DNA from: Alphaproteobacteria bacterium
GTDB taxonomy: Bacteria > Pseudomonadota > Alphaproteobacteria > UBA9219
Direction of reading: 5' to 3'
Assembly (NCBI GenBank): GCA_009779135.1
Contig: WREW01000001.1
Coordinates: 173,498-237,497, forward strand
Length of the DNA stretch: 64,000 nucleotides
Shown: piece after piece, positions 3,001-22,601 of the stretch
Numbering within the stretch: the first letter of the stretch is position 1
Layout of the letters: the number at the start of each line of letters is the position of its first letter
The notes under the pieces: generated by a model
The model's input: only the letters and a program-made list of their open reading frames with translations
What the model was told of the DNA's origin: nothing
The model's database searches: none
Made by a program: the position numbers and the translations under genes

Positions 3001-4525
3001 GTTAAGCACAGGCGCAGGCTCGGGCGGACAAAACGCCATCGGCGCCACGGTTGTTTTCGGCATGCTCGTGGCCACAAGTCTGGGCCTTTTCTTCACGCCG
3101 CTGTTCTTTGTTTTGATTACGAACATCTTTGGCCGCGTGCGCCTGCCTAAAGCTGCTTTGGCCGTCTGCCTTGTGCTTTTGTCCGGCTGCACGATGGCGC
3201 CGACTTATAAAAGGCCTGATGCGCCCATCCCAAATAACTATGCGGCCCAAAGCGCGGACAATGACAAGATCGCAACACTTCCTGCGCCCGCGCAGTTTTT
3301 CAAGGATGAACCGATGGCGCGCCTTATCGGACTTGCGCTTGAAAATAATCGTGATCTGCGCCTTGCGATGCTGAATATTGAAAAAACGCGCGCGCAATAC
3401 CGCATCCAGCGCGCAGATCTTTTGCCCACGATAAACGCTACAGGCAGTTTAAACTGGCAGCATTTGCCAGCTGATATTGCAGGCGGCGGGGTCGAAAAAA
3501 CAACAAGGCAATATACGGCCAGCCTTGGTTTCAGCGCGTTTGAGCTGGATCTGTTTGGCCGTATCCGCAGCCTGAAAGATCAGGCGCTTGAAAACTTCTA
3601 TGCCGTTCAAGAAGAAGCCCGCGCCGCCAAGCTGAGCCTGACGGCAGAAGTTGCAGCCGTTTATCTGCAGCTTGTGGCAGATCGGCAGCAATATGATCTT
3701 ACGCAGGCTACGCTTGAGAACAGAAAAAAGAATCACGACATTATTTATCGCAAGTTCAAAGCGGGCATCGCCTCTGATCTCGAGCTCAGTCAGGCGGAAA
3801 GCGTTTTAAATGAAGCGCAAGCCAATCTGGCCGTCTCCGCCGCCATGATCGGGCAGGATGAAAATCACCTGATGCTTTTGATCGCCGCACCTTTGCCAAA
3901 GGATTTGCCGGGTGTGCGCAGGCTTGCCGATGTCAAGGCGTTTGAGGATGTATCTTCAGGCGCGCCGTCTTTGTTGCTGGCGCGGCGTCCCGATATTCGC
4001 GCGGCTGAACATATGTTGAAAGGCGCAGGCGCCAATATAGGGGCGGCGCGGGCCAATTTTTTCCCCATCATAAGCCTGACGGGAAATTTCGGAACGATGA
4101 GCCTTGATATGCGCAATCTTTTCGAAGGCCCAAGCCAGAGCTGGAGTTTCTTCCCGCAAATCGTGCTGCCGCTTTTCGATACGGGCCGCAACATTGCGCG
4201 TCTTGAAGTTGCCAAGGCTGAGCGCGCCATGGCCGTGGCGCGTTACGAAAAAGCCATCCAGACCGGTTTTCGTGAAGTTACTGACGCGCTGATCCAGCGC
4301 GACAATATGGCCGCTCGCCTGATGGCGCAGGAATCGCTCGTCGCTTCCACAACGCGCAGCATGGATCATGCCACGGCGCGCTATGAGGCGGGGATTGATG
4401 CTTATATCAATGTGCTTGATGCGCAGCGCTCGCTTTTCAGCGCGCAAAGCACCATGATTGCCGTGCATCTTTTGCGGGAGACCAACGCCCTAACGCTCTA
4501 TAAGGCGCTCGGCGGCGGGTGGTAG
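50..4525 (+). CDS. RND efflux permease (AcrB/HAE1 family, about aa 1-1029) continuing in frame into an outer-membrane factor lipoprotein (NodT/OprM family, from GTG at 3137); single 1491-aa ORF
   Basis: The N-terminus [45 protein letters not shown] is canonical AcrB. The C-terminal 460 aa start with a lipoprotein signal ([10 protein letters not shown]) and carry OMF motifs ([30 protein letters not shown]). No stop codon separates the two parts. Good SD (aagaagg) lies before the ATG at 50. Confidence 0.8.
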
Positions 4526-5752
4526 GAAGATTTTGGCCTTGTCATCTTTCAAAGCCACAACCCAAGGAAAGATAGTAAGGCGGTAAAAAGACTCCTGCCC
4601 GTTTTCTCTCAGGGCAAGATGGCGCGCGGGATCATCCTGCTCCCGCGCCAGCCAGAAAATCAAGAAAGGGGCCTGATCTGACGCCCTTTTCGCGCGCAAA
4701 ACCCAGACATCATCGGCACCGACATCCACGCGCTCCAAAATTATCAAGCCTTTGAGTTTTTCAAGCCCCTGCGCCACAAGCGCAAGGCTTTCCTTGACAT
4801 GGCCGCGCCCGTCCAGAAAACCGAATTGATCTTCAGCATTGTCAGGATCAGAGCCCAAGCTTTTCCATTCATACCAGATCGTCACATCAACGCCTTGACT
4901 TTTGTTAATCAGGTAAGAGCGCAGCGCATAAGCCGCCTGCTGCTGCGGTGAAGCATACCGCGTGGAATAGCCCCATTCCGTGCTTAAAAGCGGGAAGTTT
5001 TTCAAACCATGCTTTGCAAAAAAAGCACGCACCGCGTCATAAAATCCGACAACGCTTTCCGGCCTTATCGCGCCATCGCGGTAGGGATGAAGCGAAAACC
5101 CGTCAAGACAGGAAAAATCAGGATGACGCACAAGCGCGTTGAGAAAAGGATCCGCCACCACATCGCCTTGAGAGGCAAAAGCCAAATCAGGCGCCGCAAT
5201 AAAAGCATCAGGGCGCACTTCGCGCATGACTTTGCAAACCTGCATCGCCAAAGAAGTATAAGCCTTTGCGTCAGGCGCAGGCGGCCAGAAAATCGCATGA
5301 TCCGGTTCATTCCAGATCGTCCATATAAGAGGGATATTGTGATAGCGTTTCACAGCCTCCCGCGCAAAAGCGGTAAAAGCAGCGCGCGCTTCATCGCTTG
5401 CGGGCGCGGCCTGCACGCGCGTCATGCCAAAAGCGTTGGGCGGCGCTTCAATCAAACCACCGTAAAACACATGACCGACTCCAAGATGAATCACGGCGCC
5501 CAGATGATGTTTTTCAAGCTTTTCTATCAAACGATCATAAAAGCGCCAATCATAGCGCCCCTTTTGATGTTCGACATAAGGCCAAGGCATATCAAAACGC
5601 ACGCGGTCAAACCCCATGGCGGCGATTTGTGCCAGTTCCTGATCGGTGATGCGATCCGCTTTAATCTGAATGCCAAAACCGGACACGGCCTGCGCAAAGC
5701 TTTCCATGCTTGTCAAAACAAGCAAAAGACATAAAAGGACGACGCGAGCCAT
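4490..5752 (-). CDS. secreted glycoside hydrolase family 5 (cellulase-like) protein
   Basis: Signal peptide [24 protein letters not shown]5-like core with IWTIWNEPD and the TEWGY catalytic nucleophile region. I used the internal start because the longer ORF start would overlap the upstream glycosyltransferase. Confidence 0.7.
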
Positions 5753-10810: not shown

Positions 10811-13042
10811 ATGACAGAAATCGCCGCACCGCCCGCCATCCTGCCGAAAAGAAGATCGAGTCCCGAGCGTGTCTCCGCACGCCAGTTTTTGGCCTCGTCT
10901 CTTTTCAAGACGATTGACTTGCGTGAAACCGGACGGCTTTTGCGCCGGCGCATCAAGATTATCTCGCGCATGATGATTTTATGTGCGGCTCTTGGTCTGG
11001 TTCTGGCGCTGATGATTCCGGCGCAGTACCGCGCGGAAGTGACTCTTTTGATGGACCAGCGGCAAAGCAGGATTCTTGATATAGGCGCAGGTCTTGCCGC
11101 CGCCATTTCCGGCGACAACGCCGCGCTGCGCAGTGAGATTGATATCATCACTTCGCGCGCCGTGCTTGATCGCGTGATTAAAAGACTTAACCTTCTGGAT
11201 GATCCCGAGTTTAACGCGCAAGGCGGTGCCTGGAAGCAATGGCTTAATCCGCTTCGTCTTTTCGGCAAAGATCAAATAAGTGACGAAGAAGCGCGGGAAC
11301 GTGAAACCGTGGCCGTGGTGCGGGCGCTTCAAGAACGCCTTAGTGTTTCTTCAACGCCGCGATCCCTCAGCCTTTATCTGACATTCCGCTCCAGAGATGC
11401 CCGCAAAGCGGCCCTGATCGCCAACACCATTGCTGATGAATATCTTGTGGACCAGCTCGAGGCCAAATATGAGGTTACAGCCCGCGCCAACAGCTGGCTG
11501 AGCGAACGTCTGGCCAATTTGCGCGAACAGGTGCAGATCACCGAACGCGCGGTTGAAGATTTTCGTCAAAAAGCCAATCTGGTTCAGATTGACGGCGGCA
11601 CTATTGCAGCCGGACAGATTCAGGGAATCAACACGCAGCTGATTACGGCGCGCGCGGCCACCTCGCAGGCTGAAGCGCGTTTGCGCAGCGCGCAGGCCAT
11701 GCTCAAGGCTGGCAACAGCATTGAAGGGGTTGCGGATGTTCTTGCCGCGCCCTTGATTCAGAAATTGCGCGAACAGGAAGCCGAAGTACGCCGCCGCGAA
11801 TCCGAACTTGCCACACGTTACGGCGAACGCCACCCCATGATGATTAACATCCGCGCCGAGCGTGAAAGCCTGCAGCGCAAAATTGCGGAAGAGATGCAAA
11901 AGATTCTTAAATCTCTGGAAGGCGAAGTTGCCGTAGCGCGCGCCAAAGAACAGCAGCTGCGCCATGATTTATCGCAGCTTGAGGTTCGCGCCGGCACCGA
12001 ACTTAAAGACACCGTCCAGCTTCGCCAGCTGCAGCGTGAGGCGGACGCCAACCGGACTTTGTATGAAAACTTTCTGGGCCGCTTCAAACAAACTTCGGAG
12101 CAGCAGGAACTGCAACTGCCCGACACCCGCATCATTGCGCGCGCGGATGTGCCGCTTAGACCCTTTTTCCCGCAGACATGGCTTTTTGTAGCTCTGGGCG
12201 CGCTTTTGGGCGGCGGGCTTGGGGTTTTGATGACCTATCTGATCGAATATTTCGATCGAGGTTTTCGCACCGCGCCGCAGCTTGAAGAAGCCATCGGCAT
12301 CCCTGTGATCGGTCAGGTGCCGAGCCTCAAGCGCATCACCGAAAAAACGCCCGAAGATTATGTTGTCAGCAAACCGCTTTCAGCCTTCAGCGAAGCTTTG
12401 CGCACAGTGCGCACGGCCATACATTTCTCCAATGTGGATCGCCCGCCGCGCAGCGTGATGGTGACAAGCTCGGCCCCGTCGGAAGGCAAAACGACATTTT
12501 GCTTTTCGCTCGCGCGTTCGTTGGCCATTGCGGGTAACAAGATTTTGCTGATTGACGCGGATCTTCGACGCCCGCGCCTTGCGCGTATTCTCAAAATCCG
12601 CGCGGATCGCAGAGATCTCACGACAATTTTAACCGGCGAAAGCAAGGTAGAGGATGTTTTGCGCACCGATCCCACCACGCCCAATTTATCGGTTATTCCG
12701 GCTTTTGGCCGCTCGCCCAACGCGCAGGATCTTCTCGGCTCCAACCAGATGAAAAACCTGATGGAGGAGCTTTCCAAAAACTATGACCTTATTATTGTCG
12801 ATACGCCGCCTATTTTAGCTGTTTCCGATGCGGCGATGGTGGCGCGCGTGGTGGATACCAGCCTTTTCATCGTCAAATGGGCCGATACATCGCGCGATAC
12901 CGTGACGCAAGCGCTTAAACAGCTGCAAAGCTTCGGCTCTCGCATTGCCGGTGCCGTGCTCAATCAGGTCAATCTCAAGGAAGTCGCAAGCTATGGAGAC
13001 GGCTATTACAGCCACAGCTACCATGCCTACTATACCGATTAA
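10811..13042 (+). CDS. polysaccharide co-polymerase / tyrosine autokinase (Wzc/ExoP/GumC family, PCP-2a)
   Basis: N-terminal chain-length-determinant region with a TM segment, a long coiled coil, and a C-terminal P-loop kinase domain (VTSSAPSEGKTTFCFSLARSLA, DLIIVDTPP). The C-terminal Tyr cluster is YGDGYYSHSYHAYY. Confidence 0.85.
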   Translation: MTEIAAPPAILPKRRSSPERVSARQFLASSLFKTIDLRETGRLLRRRIKIISRMMILCAALGLVLALMIPAQYRAEVTLLMDQRQSRILDIGAGLAAAISGDNAALRSEIDIITSRAVLDRVIKRLNLLDDPEFNAQGGAWKQWLNPLRLFGKDQISDEEARERETVAVVRALQERLSVSSTPRSLSLYLTFRSRDARKAALIANTIADEYLVDQLEAKYEVTARANSWLSERLANLREQVQITERAVEDFRQKANLVQIDGGTIAAGQIQGINTQLITARAATSQAEARLRSAQAMLKAGNSIEGVADVLAAPLIQKLREQEAEVRRRESELATRYGERHPMMINIRAERESLQRKIAEEMQKILKSLEGEVAVARAKEQQLRHDLSQLEVRAGTELKDTVQLRQLQREADANRTLYENFLGRFKQTSEQQELQLPDTRIIARADVPLRPFFPQTWLFVALGALLGGGLGVLMTYLIEYFDRGFRTAPQLEEAIGIPVIGQVPSLKRITEKTPEDYVVSKPLSAFSEALRTVRTAIHFSNVDRPPRSVMVTSSAPSEGKTTFCFSLARSLAIAGNKILLIDADLRRPRLARILKIRADRRDLTTILTGESKVEDVLRTDPTTPNLSVIPAFGRSPNAQDLLGSNQMKNLMEELSKNYDLIIVDTPPILAVSDAAMVARVVDTSLFIVKWADTSRDTVTQALKQLQSFGSRIAGAVLNQVNLKEVASYGDGYYSHSYHAYYTD

Positions 13043-15749: not shown

Positions 15750-16799
15750 TTAAGGGAAGAGCGATAAAACCTCATCCATCACAGCAATCCCGCGCTCCGC
15801 ATCCTCGACCGTCAAAGGCCCCATCAGGGCCAGCTGGATCCAGTTGCGCGCTGGCAAATAGCTGCCCTGATAATAAAGCCGGACGCCGCGCGCCTCTAAA
15901 GCCTGCCCCAAATCCTGCGCGGAAATGGAAGGGGGCAGCGCCAAGCTCCAGACAAAATCCGCCTGTCCCTCTGCGGCGGGCGTTTGAAGCTGATGCCTTG
16001 CCATCATCGCGCGGATCAGCGCGGCCATTTTTGCGGTCTCTTCGAGTTTTTTCTTAAAGTCGGTATGAACAAGCGCCGCATGCAGCGCCAAAAGAAGATG
16101 GGACAAAAGCGTAAAAGGAACGCAAGCCTCATCATGAAAAACACCAAGATCAAGATAGGCAGGAATAGAAGGCGAGGGCGCGACCTCATGATTGTAAAAC
16201 ACAAGCGCAAGCCCCGCAAAAGCACCAAGCCCTTTGCCGCTGGTGCCGCTTGCAAGATACACATCGCGCAGATCAAGCTTCATGTTGCCAAGCGCGCTGA
16301 TCGCATCAAGACAAAGCCTGATCCCGCGCGGCTTGCAAAAAGCCAACACGTCTTCATAGGCGTTAATCATACCGGTGGAAGTTTCACAAAGCACAAACCA
16401 AACCCAAGCCTTATCCTGAAGTTTCTGAAACAGGGCAGGGCGGTCAAACCCCACACTCCATTCTTGCGCATGAACATCAAAATCAAGCCCGTGCCGCAAA
16501 GCTTGCATGGCAAGCCTTTCCCCAAACGCCCCATTAGAAAGAACAAGGCCGCGCCCTTGAATCTGTAAAAGCTGCTGCGCAATCATCTCATTGGCCAAAG
16601 TCGCGCTGCCCATCGTAAGCGCACAATGCCGCGCATGAGTCAAACCCCTAAGTCGCGCCAGCGTGTCCGCCCGCACAGCAAGAAAAGCCTCACTGCGGTG
16701 CGAGATTATCTCAGCTGCAAAAGCAGCCCTCACCTCGGGCAAAACCGCAATCGGGCCAGGAAGGAAGTTTAAAGTCGTCATCTCATGATTTTCAAACAT
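15750..16799 (-). CDS. class V aminotransferase (alanine-glyoxylate / serine-pyruvate aminotransferase family)
   Basis: PLP-lysine region LASGTSGKGLGA and overall class V architecture. 349 aa. Confidence 0.75.
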   Translation of the reverse strand: MFENHEMTTLNFLPGPIAVLPEVRAAFAAEIISHRSEAFLAVRADTLARLRGLTHARHCALTMGSATLANEMIAQQLLQIQGRGLVLSNGAFGERLAMQALRHGLDFDVHAQEWSVGFDRPALFQKLQDKAWVWFVLCETSTGMINAYEDVLAFCKPRGIRLCLDAISALGNMKLDLRDVYLASGTSGKGLGAFAGLALVFYNHEVAPSPSIPAYLDLGVFHDEACVPFTLLSHLLLALHAALVHTDFKKKLEETAKMAALIRAMMARHQLQTPAAEGQADFVWSLALPPSISAQDLGQALEARGVRLYYQGSYLPARNWIQLALMGPLTVEDAERGIAVMDEVLSLFP

Positions 16800-16864
16800 A
16801 TACCAAGGCTCTTGACCAGAATCTTTTTTGAAAGAATACTGTGATATAGGGGGAGGATGACGCC

Positions 16865-17134
16865 ATGCCGGTACAAATGCTCACTTTCGGGGAATATCGC
16901 CGCTTAACGCCGGAGATCAAATTAAAGTCGGAGATCAAAACCGCCGCTGCCAGCCTATGCACAAGCTGCAAAGGCATGATCGAAAAAAACGACCCTGCCG
17001 GAGATCAATATATCAACAAAAAGCGAGTTTGCAGTGACTGTTATTTCGGTGCTTTAGGCCAAGCGATCGACAAGCGGCCCATCGGCTTGCCGTGCATGGG
17101 TCAAGGCTTTAAGCCGCACAAACGTGTCCTTTAA
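16865..17134 (+). CDS. small Cys-rich protein (CxxC-x14-CxxCY zinc-ribbon-like), paralog A
   Basis: Strong SD gggggagga before the ATG. CTSCKG...CSDCYFGALGQAIDKRPIG. Paralogous to the 17362-17589 protein. Confidence 0.5.
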   Translation: MPVQMLTFGEYRRLTPEIKLKSEIKTAAASLCTSCKGMIEKNDPAGDQYINKKRVCSDCYFGALGQAIDKRPIGLPCMGQGFKPHKRVL

Positions 17135-17242
17135 CGCGGCCGTGAACACCTCACTACGATGCGAGATTGTCGCGGCAACAAAAGCAGCCTTCACCGCAGA
17201 CAAAGGCGCAATCGAACCCGGAAGACAGTTTAAAGCTGCCAT
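17054..17242 (-). pseudogene. remnant of class V aminotransferase N-terminus (duplicated fragment)
   Basis: MAALNCLPGSIAPLSAVKAAFVAATISHRSEVFTAALKDTFVRLKALTHARQ aligns to the N-terminus of the 15750-16799 aminotransferase (MTTLNFLPGPIAVLPEVRAAFAAEIISHRSEAFLAVRADTLARLRGLTHARH) at roughly 55 percent identity, then terminates. Confidence 0.45.
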
Positions 17243-17361
17243 GTTTTAAAGTAAAAAAGACGATTGTTGCAAAATTATGGAATCATTTGTTATAATGAAC
17301 ACTTGCTACTAACCATACAAATATGTTCGTAGTCAATTTTCCTTTTATTATGGAGAATGCG

Positions 17362-17589
17362 ATGCTTTTTACGGAATATCTCCAACTTCCTGATGATGTT
17401 CTGGACATTCATGCGGTTTCATGCAACCTGTGCGCCCGATGTAGCACACCGGAGAACAAGATTGTGGAAGACCATCAGCGCCTCGGCAAAGATCATGTTT
17501 GTAGTAACTGCTATTACGATGAGTGGGGTAAAAGGCTTGACAAGCAACCGATTGGTTTTCAGGGAATAAGAGGACACTCCCTTAAATAA
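17362..17589 (+). CDS. small Cys-rich protein (CxxC-x15-CxxCY zinc-ribbon-like), paralog B
   Basis: SD ggaga before the ATG at 17362. CNLCARC...CSNCYYDEWGKRLDKQPIG. The ORF could start as early as 17323. Confidence 0.5.
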   Translation: MLFTEYLQLPDDVLDIHAVSCNLCARCSTPENKIVEDHQRLGKDHVCSNCYYDEWGKRLDKQPIGFQGIRGHSLK

Positions 17590-17599
17590 GCCATTCTGA

Positions 17600-17674
17600 T
17601 GGCTGGGGCGGGAGGGATCGAACCTCCGCATGGTGGAATCAAAATCCACTGCCTTACCGCTTGGCTACGCCCCA
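17600..17674 (-). tRNA. tRNA-Gln (anticodon UUG)
   Basis: Cloverleaf readable on the minus strand: TGGGGCG acceptor pairs with CGCCCCA, anticodon loop TTTTGAT, T-arm GGTTCGATCC, discriminator G plus CCA. Confidence 0.85.
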
Positions 17675-17804
17675 ATTTTGCGCACCATAACTTGCTCGGC
17701 AGCGTTTGGCAACGCTCTTAAAAGGGAAAAAACCTTTAAACCCCTTTTTAAGATTCAATATGCTAAAGAAAATAAAGACGTTTTTTTTCGTGGAGGAAGC
17801 TCCT

Positions 17805-18278
17805 ATGCCCAAAACCGCCACCTTGCTTGACCGCACTTTTGATGAGGGTGTCGCGCTCACCGTTGAAGCGCGCAATTATATAGCCTTTCAGGATCAGACG
17901 TCGGCCGAGCGCAAAAACCTGCCGCATAATCTTCATGTGGGCTACCAGCATACGCGCGTTTCGGCACGGCTTATTCAGGTGATGACATGGCTTTTGGCGA
18001 TGAAAGCCCTTCTGGCGGGTGAGATTTCGCCCGAGCAGTTTTCATCCCCGCAATATACACTACCCTCAGCCGAGGAGTGTGAGAACCCCACAGGCCCCGA
18101 GCTGGCCGAGCTCCCCGACGGGCTGCGCTCGCTGCTGGAGCGCACCCACGCGCTCTATGCGCGTATTTTGCGCCTTGATGCCATGGTGCGTGTAAAGCTG
18201 GAGGCTGGCGAGGTTCCCAATTTCGGCATGATCCAAGGCATCCAGATTATCGACCCCCCCACAGACCCCTGTAATTAA
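17805..18278 (+). CDS. DUF1465-family protein (RcdA-like regulator of CtrA degradation)
   Basis: Strong SD ggaggaag before the ATG at 17805. I assign it to the DUF1465/RcdA family, conserved in alphaproteobacteria, by recollection. Confidence 0.55.
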   Translation: MPKTATLLDRTFDEGVALTVEARNYIAFQDQTSAERKNLPHNLHVGYQHTRVSARLIQVMTWLLAMKALLAGEISPEQFSSPQYTLPSAEECENPTGPELAELPDGLRSLLERTHALYARILRLDAMVRVKLEAGEVPNFGMIQGIQIIDPPTDPCN

Positions 18279-20423: not shown

Positions 20424-22601
20424 CTAAAACATAATCTCCGCCGCGTCCCAATCATCGCGTGGTGGTAAATCCGGCTGCGACCATGGTCTTTGGCCGCGTC
20501 CTGTGCGGCTGGTTTTAAGAATGGTCTGGCCGCCATGGCGCGTTATCATCAGCGCGCCATGCGCGCGTTGTTTTTGGCCGTCTATCACAAGGACGCCTTC
20601 GCAGGAGGGCAGCTCTTCAAACCCGATCACCATATCTGTTTGCGCGCATAGATTTTTAGGCTCAAGCGCTGCGGCGCGGGCCTTAGGATCTAAAGGATGT
20701 TTTTTGGTCGGCTTTCGCGCTTCTTTAACAAAGCTGATGCGCAACCCGTCTTTAGTATAACGGCAGACAAAATCATCGCACACAAGATCGCCTGAAGCAC
20801 TTTCAAAAGATTCTTGTTTGGAAAGATAAAAGGCAGGCACATAGCCTGCGCGTTGACGCCATTGCGCGATGGTGACATTTTCCTTGCGCCGCCCATACAC
20901 GGCCAGACGCCCGTCATTAAGTTTCACGGCCCAAAGCGGCGCATCGGCGGCCACAAAAACATTGGGGTAGGGCGTAATCGGCAGGTAAGACATCGCCAAA
21001 ACCATCGGCACAAGACCAAAAAACCGCCACCTTGCTTTCCAAAGGCAAAGCCACAGCCCGCCGCCGACCATCAAAAGAAAAGACCAAAGCGGCGGTCTGG
21101 GCGTTGTGATCTCGGCCAGCGGCCAGTGGCTGACATGCGTGGCCATCGCAATCAAAGCGTCCGCGCCAAGCCCCGCCCCTTGAAGAAAAAGCGAGGACAT
21201 GCCAAGCGGCGCCGTCAGATATGTCAAAAGAAGGCAGGGCATAATCCACAAAGTGGTAAGCGGAATCGCAAGAATATTGGTAAAAACGCCGTAAAAATGA
21301 AAAACCTGAAAAACATAAAGCGAAAAAGGCAAAGTCGCCGCCGTGGCGAGCAGTGAGGTTACAACAAGCCCGCCCCCGTGACGACCCAAAGAAGCCAGCC
21401 GGTTTTTGGGCGCTGCGGGTTGTTTGTTCTTTTTCTCATAAAAAGCCGTCAGCGCCAGAACGGCGGCAAAAGAAAGCTGAAAACTTACGCCTGTGGCCAT
21501 AAAAGGATCCAAAAGCATCAAAGCGCAGGCGGCCATCGCCAGAACGCGCAGGCTTATGGCTTTGCGGTCAAGAACAATGGCAAAGAAAACCAAACCGATC
21601 ATCAAAGCCGCACGCATGGTCGGCGGGCTTGCGCCGACAAGCACGGCATAAAACGCCGTTAAAATAATCGCCGCCAAAGCCGCGATTTTCTTAATAGGAA
21701 AACGCAGCGCCACAAAGGGAAACAAAGCCAGAAAAAACCTGAGCGGCACATAAATCAAAAGCGCCATCATCCCGACATGAAGCCCGGAAATGGCCAGAAG
21801 ATGAACGATTCCGGCCATGCGCATGGCTTGCACCGTATCAGGATCCATGCTGGAGCGCTGCCCCGTTAAAGTCGCCACGGTTAAAGTCTGCGCCGGCCCG
21901 TCAAGCTGCGCGCGCGCCGTCACCATCAAAAACCAGCGCGCGCGTTCAAACCCGATCCTGATCCCGTCAAAGAAAAAAGAAACAGCCTTGCGCTCGTCCC
22001 TCAGACGCGGCGGCACATAAGACATGCCGCTTGCGCCGAGTTTTTCAAAATAAGCCTGACGCCTGAAATCAAACCCGCTTGGCACAGCACTTTCCGCCGG
22101 TGGCCATAAAGGCCCCCAAAGATTAATGCGGCTTCCGACCAGCGGGACGTCCTCCAGCGCCTGCCTCACCCTCATGCGCACATAAACAGGCTTTGAGGGC
22201 AGCACATTGCCGTAAATCAAGGGATCTTTAAGCAAAAGTCGCGATCCCTCCTGCAAAGGCTCGACCCGCATCAAAATCCCTGTTACCGAGGCGGTTTCAA
22301 GCGGATAAGCCAAAACAGGCCTTTGCACGCGCCATGTTTGAAACTGCGCGGCATGAAACCCTGTTGCAAAGGCAAGCAAAGGCGCCAAGGCCAGCACCAT
22401 GCCAAGCCGCCGCCGACCCAAAAACAGCATACAAGCCAAAGCGGGCGTCAGCAGCGCAAGCCCCAAGGGCGGCTCAAAGCTCAGGGCAAAATAGGTAGAA
22501 ATCCCTGCCAGAAGAAAGACCGGCACCCACAAAAACCAGCGCGCGCGATCATCAAAAAAGCTGCGCTGAAGAAAAGGAAGAGGGTTCACAAAAGAGGGCA
22601 T
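20424..22601 (-). CDS. comEC: ComEC/Rec2-family DNA internalization membrane protein
   Basis: 725 aa polytopic membrane protein with DUF4131-like N-terminus and the competence domain. Confidence 0.75.
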   Translation of the reverse strand: MPSFVNPLPFLQRSFFDDRARWFLWVPVFLLAGISTYFALSFEPPLGLALLTPALACMLFLGRRRLGMVLALAPLLAFATGFHAAQFQTWRVQRPVLAYPLETASVTGILMRVEPLQEGSRLLLKDPLIYGNVLPSKPVYVRMRVRQALEDVPLVGSRINLWGPLWPPAESAVPSGFDFRRQAYFEKLGASGMSYVPPRLRDERKAVSFFFDGIRIGFERARWFLMVTARAQLDGPAQTLTVATLTGQRSSMDPDTVQAMRMAGIVHLLAISGLHVGMMALLIYVPLRFFLALFPFVALRFPIKKIAALAAIILTAFYAVLVGASPPTMRAALMIGLVFFAIVLDRKAISLRVLAMAACALMLLDPFMATGVSFQLSFAAVLALTAFYEKKNKQPAAPKNRLASLGRHGGGLVVTSLLATAATLPFSLYVFQVFHFYGVFTNILAIPLTTLWIMPCLLLTYLTAPLGMSSLFLQGAGLGADALIAMATHVSHWPLAEITTPRPPLWSFLLMVGGGLWLCLWKARWRFFGLVPMVLAMSYLPITPYPNVFVAADAPLWAVKLNDGRLAVYGRRKENVTIAQWRQRAGYVPAFYLSKQESFESASGDLVCDDFVCRYTKDGLRISFVKEARKPTKKHPLDPKARAAALEPKNLCAQTDMVIGFEELPSCEGVLVIDGQKQRAHGALMITRHGGQTILKTSRTGRGQRPWSQPDLPPRDDWDAAEIMF

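Follow-up and report, generated by a model that had tools for sequence, protein, structure and literature searches.

How a doubled head-to-head arrangement of unrelated genes arises, and whether it speaks for a link between their products, is the question raised by one locus in a 64,000-nucleotide (64-kb) stretch of an alphaproteobacterial metagenome-assembled genome (MAG; GTDB lineage UBA9219, assembly GCA_009779135.1, contig WREW01000001.1, positions 173,498 to 237,497). The whole of this stretch is called the window below, and all coordinates are positions in it. Two genes for small cysteine-rich proteins, A and B, stand here in tandem, and each faces the beginning of a gene for an aminotransferase of the class V fold (AT), complete in one case and a fragment in the other. 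A sequence-only reading of the DNA had proposed that a unit composed of the AT 5' end, a divergent promoter and the small gene was duplicated long ago, that one AT copy decayed, and that the preserved pairing suggests a functional or regulatory link. All the features described there were recovered at the coordinates given, with similarities well beyond chance. Our analysis indicates that the locus probably goes back to one old event, the tandem duplication of a segment of about 465 bp, which yielded A, the AT fragment and B. A functional link between the small protein and the aminotransferase is not supported.

Two collinear units and the junction between them

The resident AT gene occupies 15750..16799 on the minus strand (349 codons; GenBank MCL2468779.1). 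Gene A lies divergently from it on the plus strand at 16865..17134 and encodes a protein of 89 aa, annotated as a hypothetical protein of the MAG (MCL2468780.1, FWF24_00900), and gene B follows on the same strand at 17362..17589 (75 aa). A tblastn search of the window with the whole AT sequence revealed a second site only at 17087-17245. The site falls in an open minus-strand reading frame (ORF) of 62 codons, 17054-17242, overlapping gene A at its 3' end. Residues 7-58 of AT align to this frame with 31 of 52 positions identical (60%; BLASTP, E=3e-17) and 71% nucleotide identity. The formal alignment thus establishes the AT N-terminal fragment as genuine and amends its extent, which had been put at about 55% identity over 62 aa: the homology covers 52 codons, and the last 10 codons of the frame are not derived from AT and run antisense to the AIDKRPIG of A. 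The fragment (17087..17242, minus strand) aligns with the first-unit copy of the same segment at 16626..16781, also on the minus strand (52 codons, MTTLNF...THARH). The two copies include a direct repeat of 94 nt (16688-16781 and 17149-17242) that is 78% identical at a spacing of 461. Among 120 members of the AT clade, the best protein match of the fragment is the resident AT. With residues 7-58 of 349 only, the fragment does not comprise a complete AT fold with the pyridoxal phosphate (PLP)-lysine region.

The small proteins A and B share 25 of 80 residues (31%; about 43 bits, BLASTP E=3e-12), which bears out that they are diverged paralogs at an identity of 31-33% rather than the 40% first estimated. 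The two genes agree at 60-61% of first and second codon positions and at 33% of third positions, which indicates that both frames are under protein-level constraint. A search of the window by tblastn found no third copy of the small-protein family.

The units prove collinear, 461-485 nt apart, and the interrupted genes are intact on the outside: AT at the left end, the small gene at the right. The claim that AT 5' end, spacer and small gene form a repeated unit is therefore upheld. The homology to AT, followed leftward, ends at about 17087, and the homology of A to its protein family, followed rightward, ends at P76 (17092), with no gap between them. The ends of both homologies thus coincide at 17087..17092, where codons L75-P76 of A lie antisense to codon ~58 of AT, and the AT fragment represents the end of a duplicated segment of about 465 bp. 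There is no room for, and no trace of, the remaining ~290 AT codons, so that a complete second AT copy need not have existed. The proposal that one aminotransferase copy decayed finds no support here, since similarity to AT breaks off at codon ~58, precisely where A ceases to resemble its family.

A tandem duplication of this kind would proceed from an ancestral small zinc-finger gene placed divergently from AT and beside the 3' end of the tRNA-Gln gene, the segment being cut in codon ~58 of AT at one end and in codon ~76 of the small gene at the other. The left copy would remain continuous with the rest of AT, and in the right copy the small gene would keep its native 3' end. Where the copies meet, the cut small gene would read on into the copy of the AT 5' end on its antisense strand, and the native C-terminus of A would be replaced by 13 codons and a stop codon from the antisense AT piece. 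The AT 5' fragment of 156 nt would then never have been part of a complete second gene, and B would retain the native C-terminus. The termini of the two proteins show such a difference. The last 13 residues of A, CMGQGFKPHKRVL, which with the stop codon span 17093..17134 on the plus strand, antisense to the AT fragment, have no counterpart in B or in the alignment of the family, and B keeps a family-type C-terminus, PIGFQGIRGHSLK.

Segmental tandem duplications form a general class in bacteria, with which the locus shares the collinear units and the single junction. It differs from the class in its great age (29-48% nucleotide divergence), in the unequal divergence of its halves and in the antisense origin of the chimeric tail. 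It is a clean example of a duplication junction that creates a chimeric gene end antisense to a fragment of the neighbouring gene. Its practical value is modest: the locus is real, but its genome history is ordinary and opens no long-standing question. An assembly artefact was considered and rejected, because the copies, at only 52-78% identity, are too diverged to represent a mis-joined or uncollapsed repeat in a k=141 assembly.

The four-cysteine family and the aminotransferase clade

A phmmer search with A against 1.8 billion representative sequences returned 16 small proteins of 50-97 aa (E 1e-6 to 1e-3), together with two evident eukaryotic false positives. A profile search gave 16 matches and added nine further members. 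The resulting family is rare, comprising about 25 proteins of 50-126 aa known from metagenomes alone (P0004-P0029). In an alignment of 18 sequences that includes A and B, C32, C35, C56, C59 and Y60 (numbering of A) are invariant and G65, P72 and P76 nearly so, G65 and P72 being present in at least 90% of the members; the family consensus reads L.EF...C..C...VCSDCYF..G..IEKHPIG.PR. A hidden Markov model (HMM) built from the 25 other members, with A and B left out, gives scores of 78.8 bits for A and 44.6 bits for B. Both small ORFs are consequently conserved coding sequences, as attested by the 16 phmmer relatives (E<1e-3), the HMM scores and the codon pattern. No model in Pfam, NCBIfam or PHROGs matches A, B or the family, and tblastn searches of GenBank phages with A and one relative (P0014) gave no match. 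The analysis thus defines a small-protein family without a Pfam, NCBIfam or PHROG model, characterized by four invariant cysteines and an EKHPIGxPR tail and mostly phage-borne.

A and B resemble the other members in the N-terminal L.EF helix, the CxxC-x(15-22)-CxxC-Y-(F/Y) core and the tail G..(I/V)(E/D)K.PIG.P. The C-terminal motif G-x2-(I/V/L)-(E/D)-K-x-P-I-G is present as GQAIDKRPIG in A and as GKRLDKQPIG in B. In A, the cysteines are C32, C35, C56 and C59, and the family-homologous part ends at P76; B has C21, C24, C47 and C50 and an extra C27. Between the two CxxC pairs lie 20 residues in A and 22 residues in B, where 13-15 had been stated, and the common N-terminal motif holds with a one-residue gap but not in the form first written, since B reads MLFTEY. 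B is the faster-evolving copy and an outlying member of the family; a word-indexed search with B alone returned only B itself.

B is not annotated in the GenBank record of the MAG, in which its neighbours A and AT are, and the present analysis thereby exposes a family member that is absent from this annotation. The JGI and ENA gene callers give it 88 aa with a start at 17323, but a start at 17362 is favoured by the family alignment and by a Shine-Dalgarno sequence, GGAG at 17352-17355. The gene is preceded by an AT-rich spacer of 119 nt (17243..17361; GC ~34%) with a promoter-like site at 17267-17296 (TTGCAA-18-TATAAT with an extended -10 TG; 10/12 matches), the best-scoring one of the region in a consensus scan. 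Upstream of A, the same scan points to a candidate sigma-70-like promoter at 16812..16840 (TTGACC-17-AATACT, 9/12 matches), and a Shine-Dalgarno sequence, GGAGG, was read at 16852-16856. As both genes have a properly spaced Shine-Dalgarno sequence and a sigma-70-like site upstream, we infer from these signals that A and B are both expressed.

The AlphaFold2 model of A has a mean pLDDT of 69, with values of 74-91 over residues 31-70 that reach 91 around the second CxxC. The elements follow in the order N-terminal helix, CxxC knuckle, beta-hairpin and a second CxxC that opens a helix, so that the predicted geometry is that of a treble-clef-like zinc finger. Treble-clef fingers such as LIM halves and ZZ domains likewise combine a zinc knuckle and a beta-hairpin with a helix that begins at a second CxxC, but the likeness is one of fold type only, with TM scores of at most 0.4, E-values of at least 0.3 and no sequence relationship. 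A sequence profile search of the PDB with the small protein found nothing below E=0.014, and Foldseek searches of the PDB and BFVD found nothing below E=0.18. No solved structure or predicted viral one was thus a significant match; LIM halves and ZZ domains were the top Foldseek matches, at E of 0.2 or more, the best LIM matches having E-values of 0.3-2 and TM scores of 0.23-0.34 for a model of this mean pLDDT. Considering the invariant cysteines together with the model, A and B are anticipated to be single-zinc binding modules of the treble-clef type. The DksA/TraR proteins (PF01258) are also small, often phage-borne, and contain four cysteines in two CxxC pairs as A and B do. Their spacing and flanking motifs differ, however, and neither A nor B matches PF01258 in Pfam even at E<=1. 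A single DksA-family structure, 6ptg, appeared among the Foldseek matches (E=3.6).

Genomic context was legible for seven distinct family members at nine loci; the contig L015 was too short. Two of the loci (L008 and L009) are T4-like phage contigs that encode the RegA translation repressor, homing and HNH endonucleases and a tail tube protein, and that also carry rows of small co-directional ORFs. A third (L010) encodes a dCMP deaminase together with phage-only PHROGs, and a fourth (L014) an RNA ligase, a cold-shock protein and small co-directional ORFs. The remaining members adjoin topoisomerase VI A/B, HisRS, or a GNAT and an ADP-ribosylglycohydrolase. All loci that were read have one family copy each, and most have a GC content of 30-41%. 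In the most likely account, A and B are of phage ancestry. Their relatives are single-copy and found mainly on low-GC, phage-like contigs, whereas A and B are chromosomal, in tandem and beside a tRNA gene, and the tail of A is chimeric, unlike that of its relatives. The EKHPIGxPR tail and the contexts reminiscent of phage early genes may point to a small binding or adaptor module for a protein or nucleic-acid partner.

The resident AT matches Aminotran_5 (PF00266) with 23.8 bits against a cut-off of 21.5. Its best NCBIfam match is PhnW-AepZ; the PhnW/AepZ models (TIGR03301 and TIGR02326) score 107 bits for the best and 63 for the other, far below their equivalog cut-offs of 360.8 and 400.8. 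The PhnW/AepZ 2-aminoethylphosphonate aminotransferases are the nearest named enzymes, and the class V fold is common to both. The protein is 41-52% identical to the members of its clade, with 52% and 46% for the two closest. An SGK motif contains K189, a residue that all 16 clade members compared have in common and that, by analogy with the known class V motif, presumably corresponds to the Schiff-base lysine that binds PLP. The true start of the protein is probably M7, at 16781, the position at which one homolog (P0031) and the AT fragment both begin.

Each of the two closest AT homologs is preceded by an overlapping gene for a FeeM-type GNAT N-acyltransferase, and most members of the clade are GNAT-AT fusions of about 545 aa (GNAT: PF13444/PF21926). 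In its class V fold and its SGK lysine the resident AT agrees with this clade; it differs in standing alone, no FeeM-type GNAT being detected in the window. It may be the orphaned half of a two-component N-acyl-amine pathway. A literature search on GNAT-aminotransferase fusions yielded nothing relevant. GNAT and AT were observed together at 3492-5038 of one locus (L063) and at 3096-5122 of another (L064), the latter containing the second-closest AT homolog (P0032).

These surveys also bear on the suggestion that the pairing reflects a functional link. No aminotransferase stands beside a family member at any of the nine loci read for the small proteins, nor does a family member stand near an AT homolog at any of nine loci (six genomic, L001-L006, and three, L063-L065, with the two closest homologs). 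Members of the AT clade usually have a FeeM-type GNAT as partner instead of a zinc finger. Moreover, the two pairings in the window are one duplication seen twice, and hence are no independent evidence of coupling. The locus is in this respect a caution that a duplicated adjacency is not evidence of functional coupling.

As to further carriers, one of the closest relatives of A (P0007, 50% over 50 aa) comes from the short contig L015 (ENA ERZ27256827). Its accession and that of the assembly with P0032 and L064 (ERZ27257342) adjoin the sample of the window, ERZ27257295. From these adjoining assemblies it follows that the same habitat holds further carriers of both families.

Unequal divergence and the competing histories

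Several observations weigh against the simplest form of a single duplication, in which all parts of the unit diverge alike. In the AT pair, the proportion of synonymous differences (pS) is 0.50, with a synonymous divergence (dS) of 0.83, a nonsynonymous divergence (dN) of 0.25 and a dN/dS of 0.30, and 29% of the nucleotides differ; between A and B, pS is 0.75-0.79 and thus saturated, and 48% of the nucleotides differ. Identity at third codon positions is 60% in the AT pair against 33%, the random level, between A and B (Fisher p=0.004), and the synonymous differences are likewise unequal (Fisher p=0.04). A scores higher against at least 10 metagenomic relatives (47-53 bits) than against B (42.7), and the best match of B is not A but another family member (P0008). 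B and its spacer are also compositionally distinct: the GC content at third codon positions (GC3) is 0.447 in B, 0.595 in A and 0.56-0.70 in the neighbouring genes, and the spacer, with its GC of about 34%, has no detectable homology to the spacer of the first unit (P=0.37). Finally, the ancestral single-copy arrangement was found in no genome, either in a scan of genome contigs with AT, which returned homologs of 35-44% identity, none with a small gene, or in a scan of metagenomes with RcdA. Neutral divergence is not alike along the unit, and either gene conversion or a second event is needed. The earlier claim that the unit was duplicated thus stands as far as the collinearity goes, and is incomplete in that a single clean duplication leaves the unequal divergence of the halves unaccounted for.

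Three explanations would reconcile the two halves. Gene conversion from the resident AT may have kept the fragment similar while A and B were free, or were driven, to diverge; B and its spacer may have been replaced later by a foreign allele; or A and B predate the AT fragment, which amounts to two events. We favour gene conversion, because one tandem duplication accounts for both the collinearity and the single junction without further assumptions.

The strongest competitor is a history of two events, in which A and B were older tandem paralogs, or separately acquired members of phage derivation, and the AT fragment reached the 3' end of A through a separate and younger rearrangement; we regard it as a minority reading. 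The same weight is shared with a variant in which recombination with a foreign allele of lower GC later overwrote B together with its AT-rich spacer. Both draw on the saturation of synonymous sites between A and B but not in the AT pair, on the lack of reciprocal best matches between A and B within the family, and on the atypical composition of B and its upstream spacer, which recalls the 30-41% GC of most family contigs. The variability among relatives of the site on the 3' side of the tRNA gene, where one of them carries a serine recombinase, points in the same direction. Against this, the AT fragment would have had to land in the correct orientation and exactly between two existing small genes, a coincidence that a tandem duplication does not need. 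No other locus has two family copies, and the window contains neither att-like repeats of the tRNA end nor an integrase.

Rather doubtful, as a compound of several steps, is a history in which a phage-derived small zinc-finger gene was domesticated beside tRNA-Gln and duplicated, after which A acquired a new tail by overprinting the AT fragment on its antisense strand, B diverged rapidly under positive selection and the fragment was retained. In this joint proposal, the fragment would have been kept similar to its parent because it encodes the tail and stop codon of A or a 62-aa peptide. If true, it would provide a small worked example of how a gene is born where duplicated segments meet, and of sub- or neo-functionalisation within a zinc-finger family not described before.

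It is improbable that the AT fragment was kept for a function of its own, whether translated into a 62-aa peptide or acting as an antisense partner or cis element on the expression of the 3' end of A or of B. The frame of 62 codons is open and begins with ATG, its first 94 nt are those 78% identical to the resident AT, and its dN/dS of 0.30 invites the suspicion of constraint. In simulations of neutral decay from a constrained parent, however, a 52-codon frame stays open in about 47% of runs, and a pN/pS (nonsynonymous to synonymous proportion) as low as observed is reached in 4-10%, so that constraint on the fragment is not demonstrated. Gene conversion from the selected resident copy would yield an equal pattern. 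Furthermore, no Shine-Dalgarno sequence is seen upstream of the ATG of the fragment, no gene caller reports the ORF at 17054-17242, and a search of Rfam over 16500-17900 identified the tRNA as the sole element. The fragment is most likely an inert by-product, and the end of gene A is now encoded on its opposite strand.

Terminator-like hairpins with a T-run were noted on the minus strand at 17184-17207, in the AT fragment, and at 16688-16705, in the 5' region of the resident AT. They lie at non-homologous positions, and their number does not exceed that expected from shuffled sequence (3 vs 1.7).

Very unlikely, lastly, is the duplication of a full AT unit with decay of the second AT and a head-to-head pairing that signals functional or regulatory coupling: the arrangement does occur twice, A and AT are separated by a short interval (65-83 nt) of the sort often seen in divergent pairs of regulator and target, and the fragment has an open frame with a pN/pS somewhat below the neutral expectation, but the AT homology abuts the coding sequence of A with no residue of the other ~290 codons, the two pairings come from a single event, the two families are not syntenic at any other locus examined, and FeeM-type GNAT is the recurrent partner of the AT clade.

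The chromosomal site

Gene B is followed by a tRNA-Gln(UUG) gene on the minus strand (17600..17674; ARAGORN, Rfam tRNA 63.5 bits), the 3' end of which faces B at a distance of 10 nt from the stop codon. The tRNA gene is arranged head to head with the gene for RcdA (DUF1465), the pair spanning 17600-18278. The surroundings are ordinary chromosome, with an exopolysaccharide cluster and AhpC, then RcdA, LexA, ComEC and GltX. Neither an att-like repeat of the 3' end of tRNA-Gln nor integrase or phage genes that would indicate an integrated element were found in the window.

The scan of metagenomes with RcdA yielded 46 related loci (L017-L062), in which RcdA is 59-93% identical. The tRNA-Gln/RcdA pair is kept in about 36 of them, and neither LexA downstream nor the sequence beyond the 3' end of the tRNA is conserved. 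AT, A and B occur in none of the 46. Given their absence from these relatives and the differing content of the loci, AT, A and B are lineage-specific genes at a variable site. One of the relatives (L019) carries a large serine recombinase near tRNA-Gln, which suggests that the site is an integration hotspot.

An exact repeat of 18 nt, AAAACCGCCACCTTGCTT, was also observed at 17811-17828, at the start of the RcdA ORF, and at 21020-21037, inside the ComEC ORF, where 0.02 such repeats would be expected by chance. A partial inverted match of 22 nt to this repeat is located at 12638-12659.

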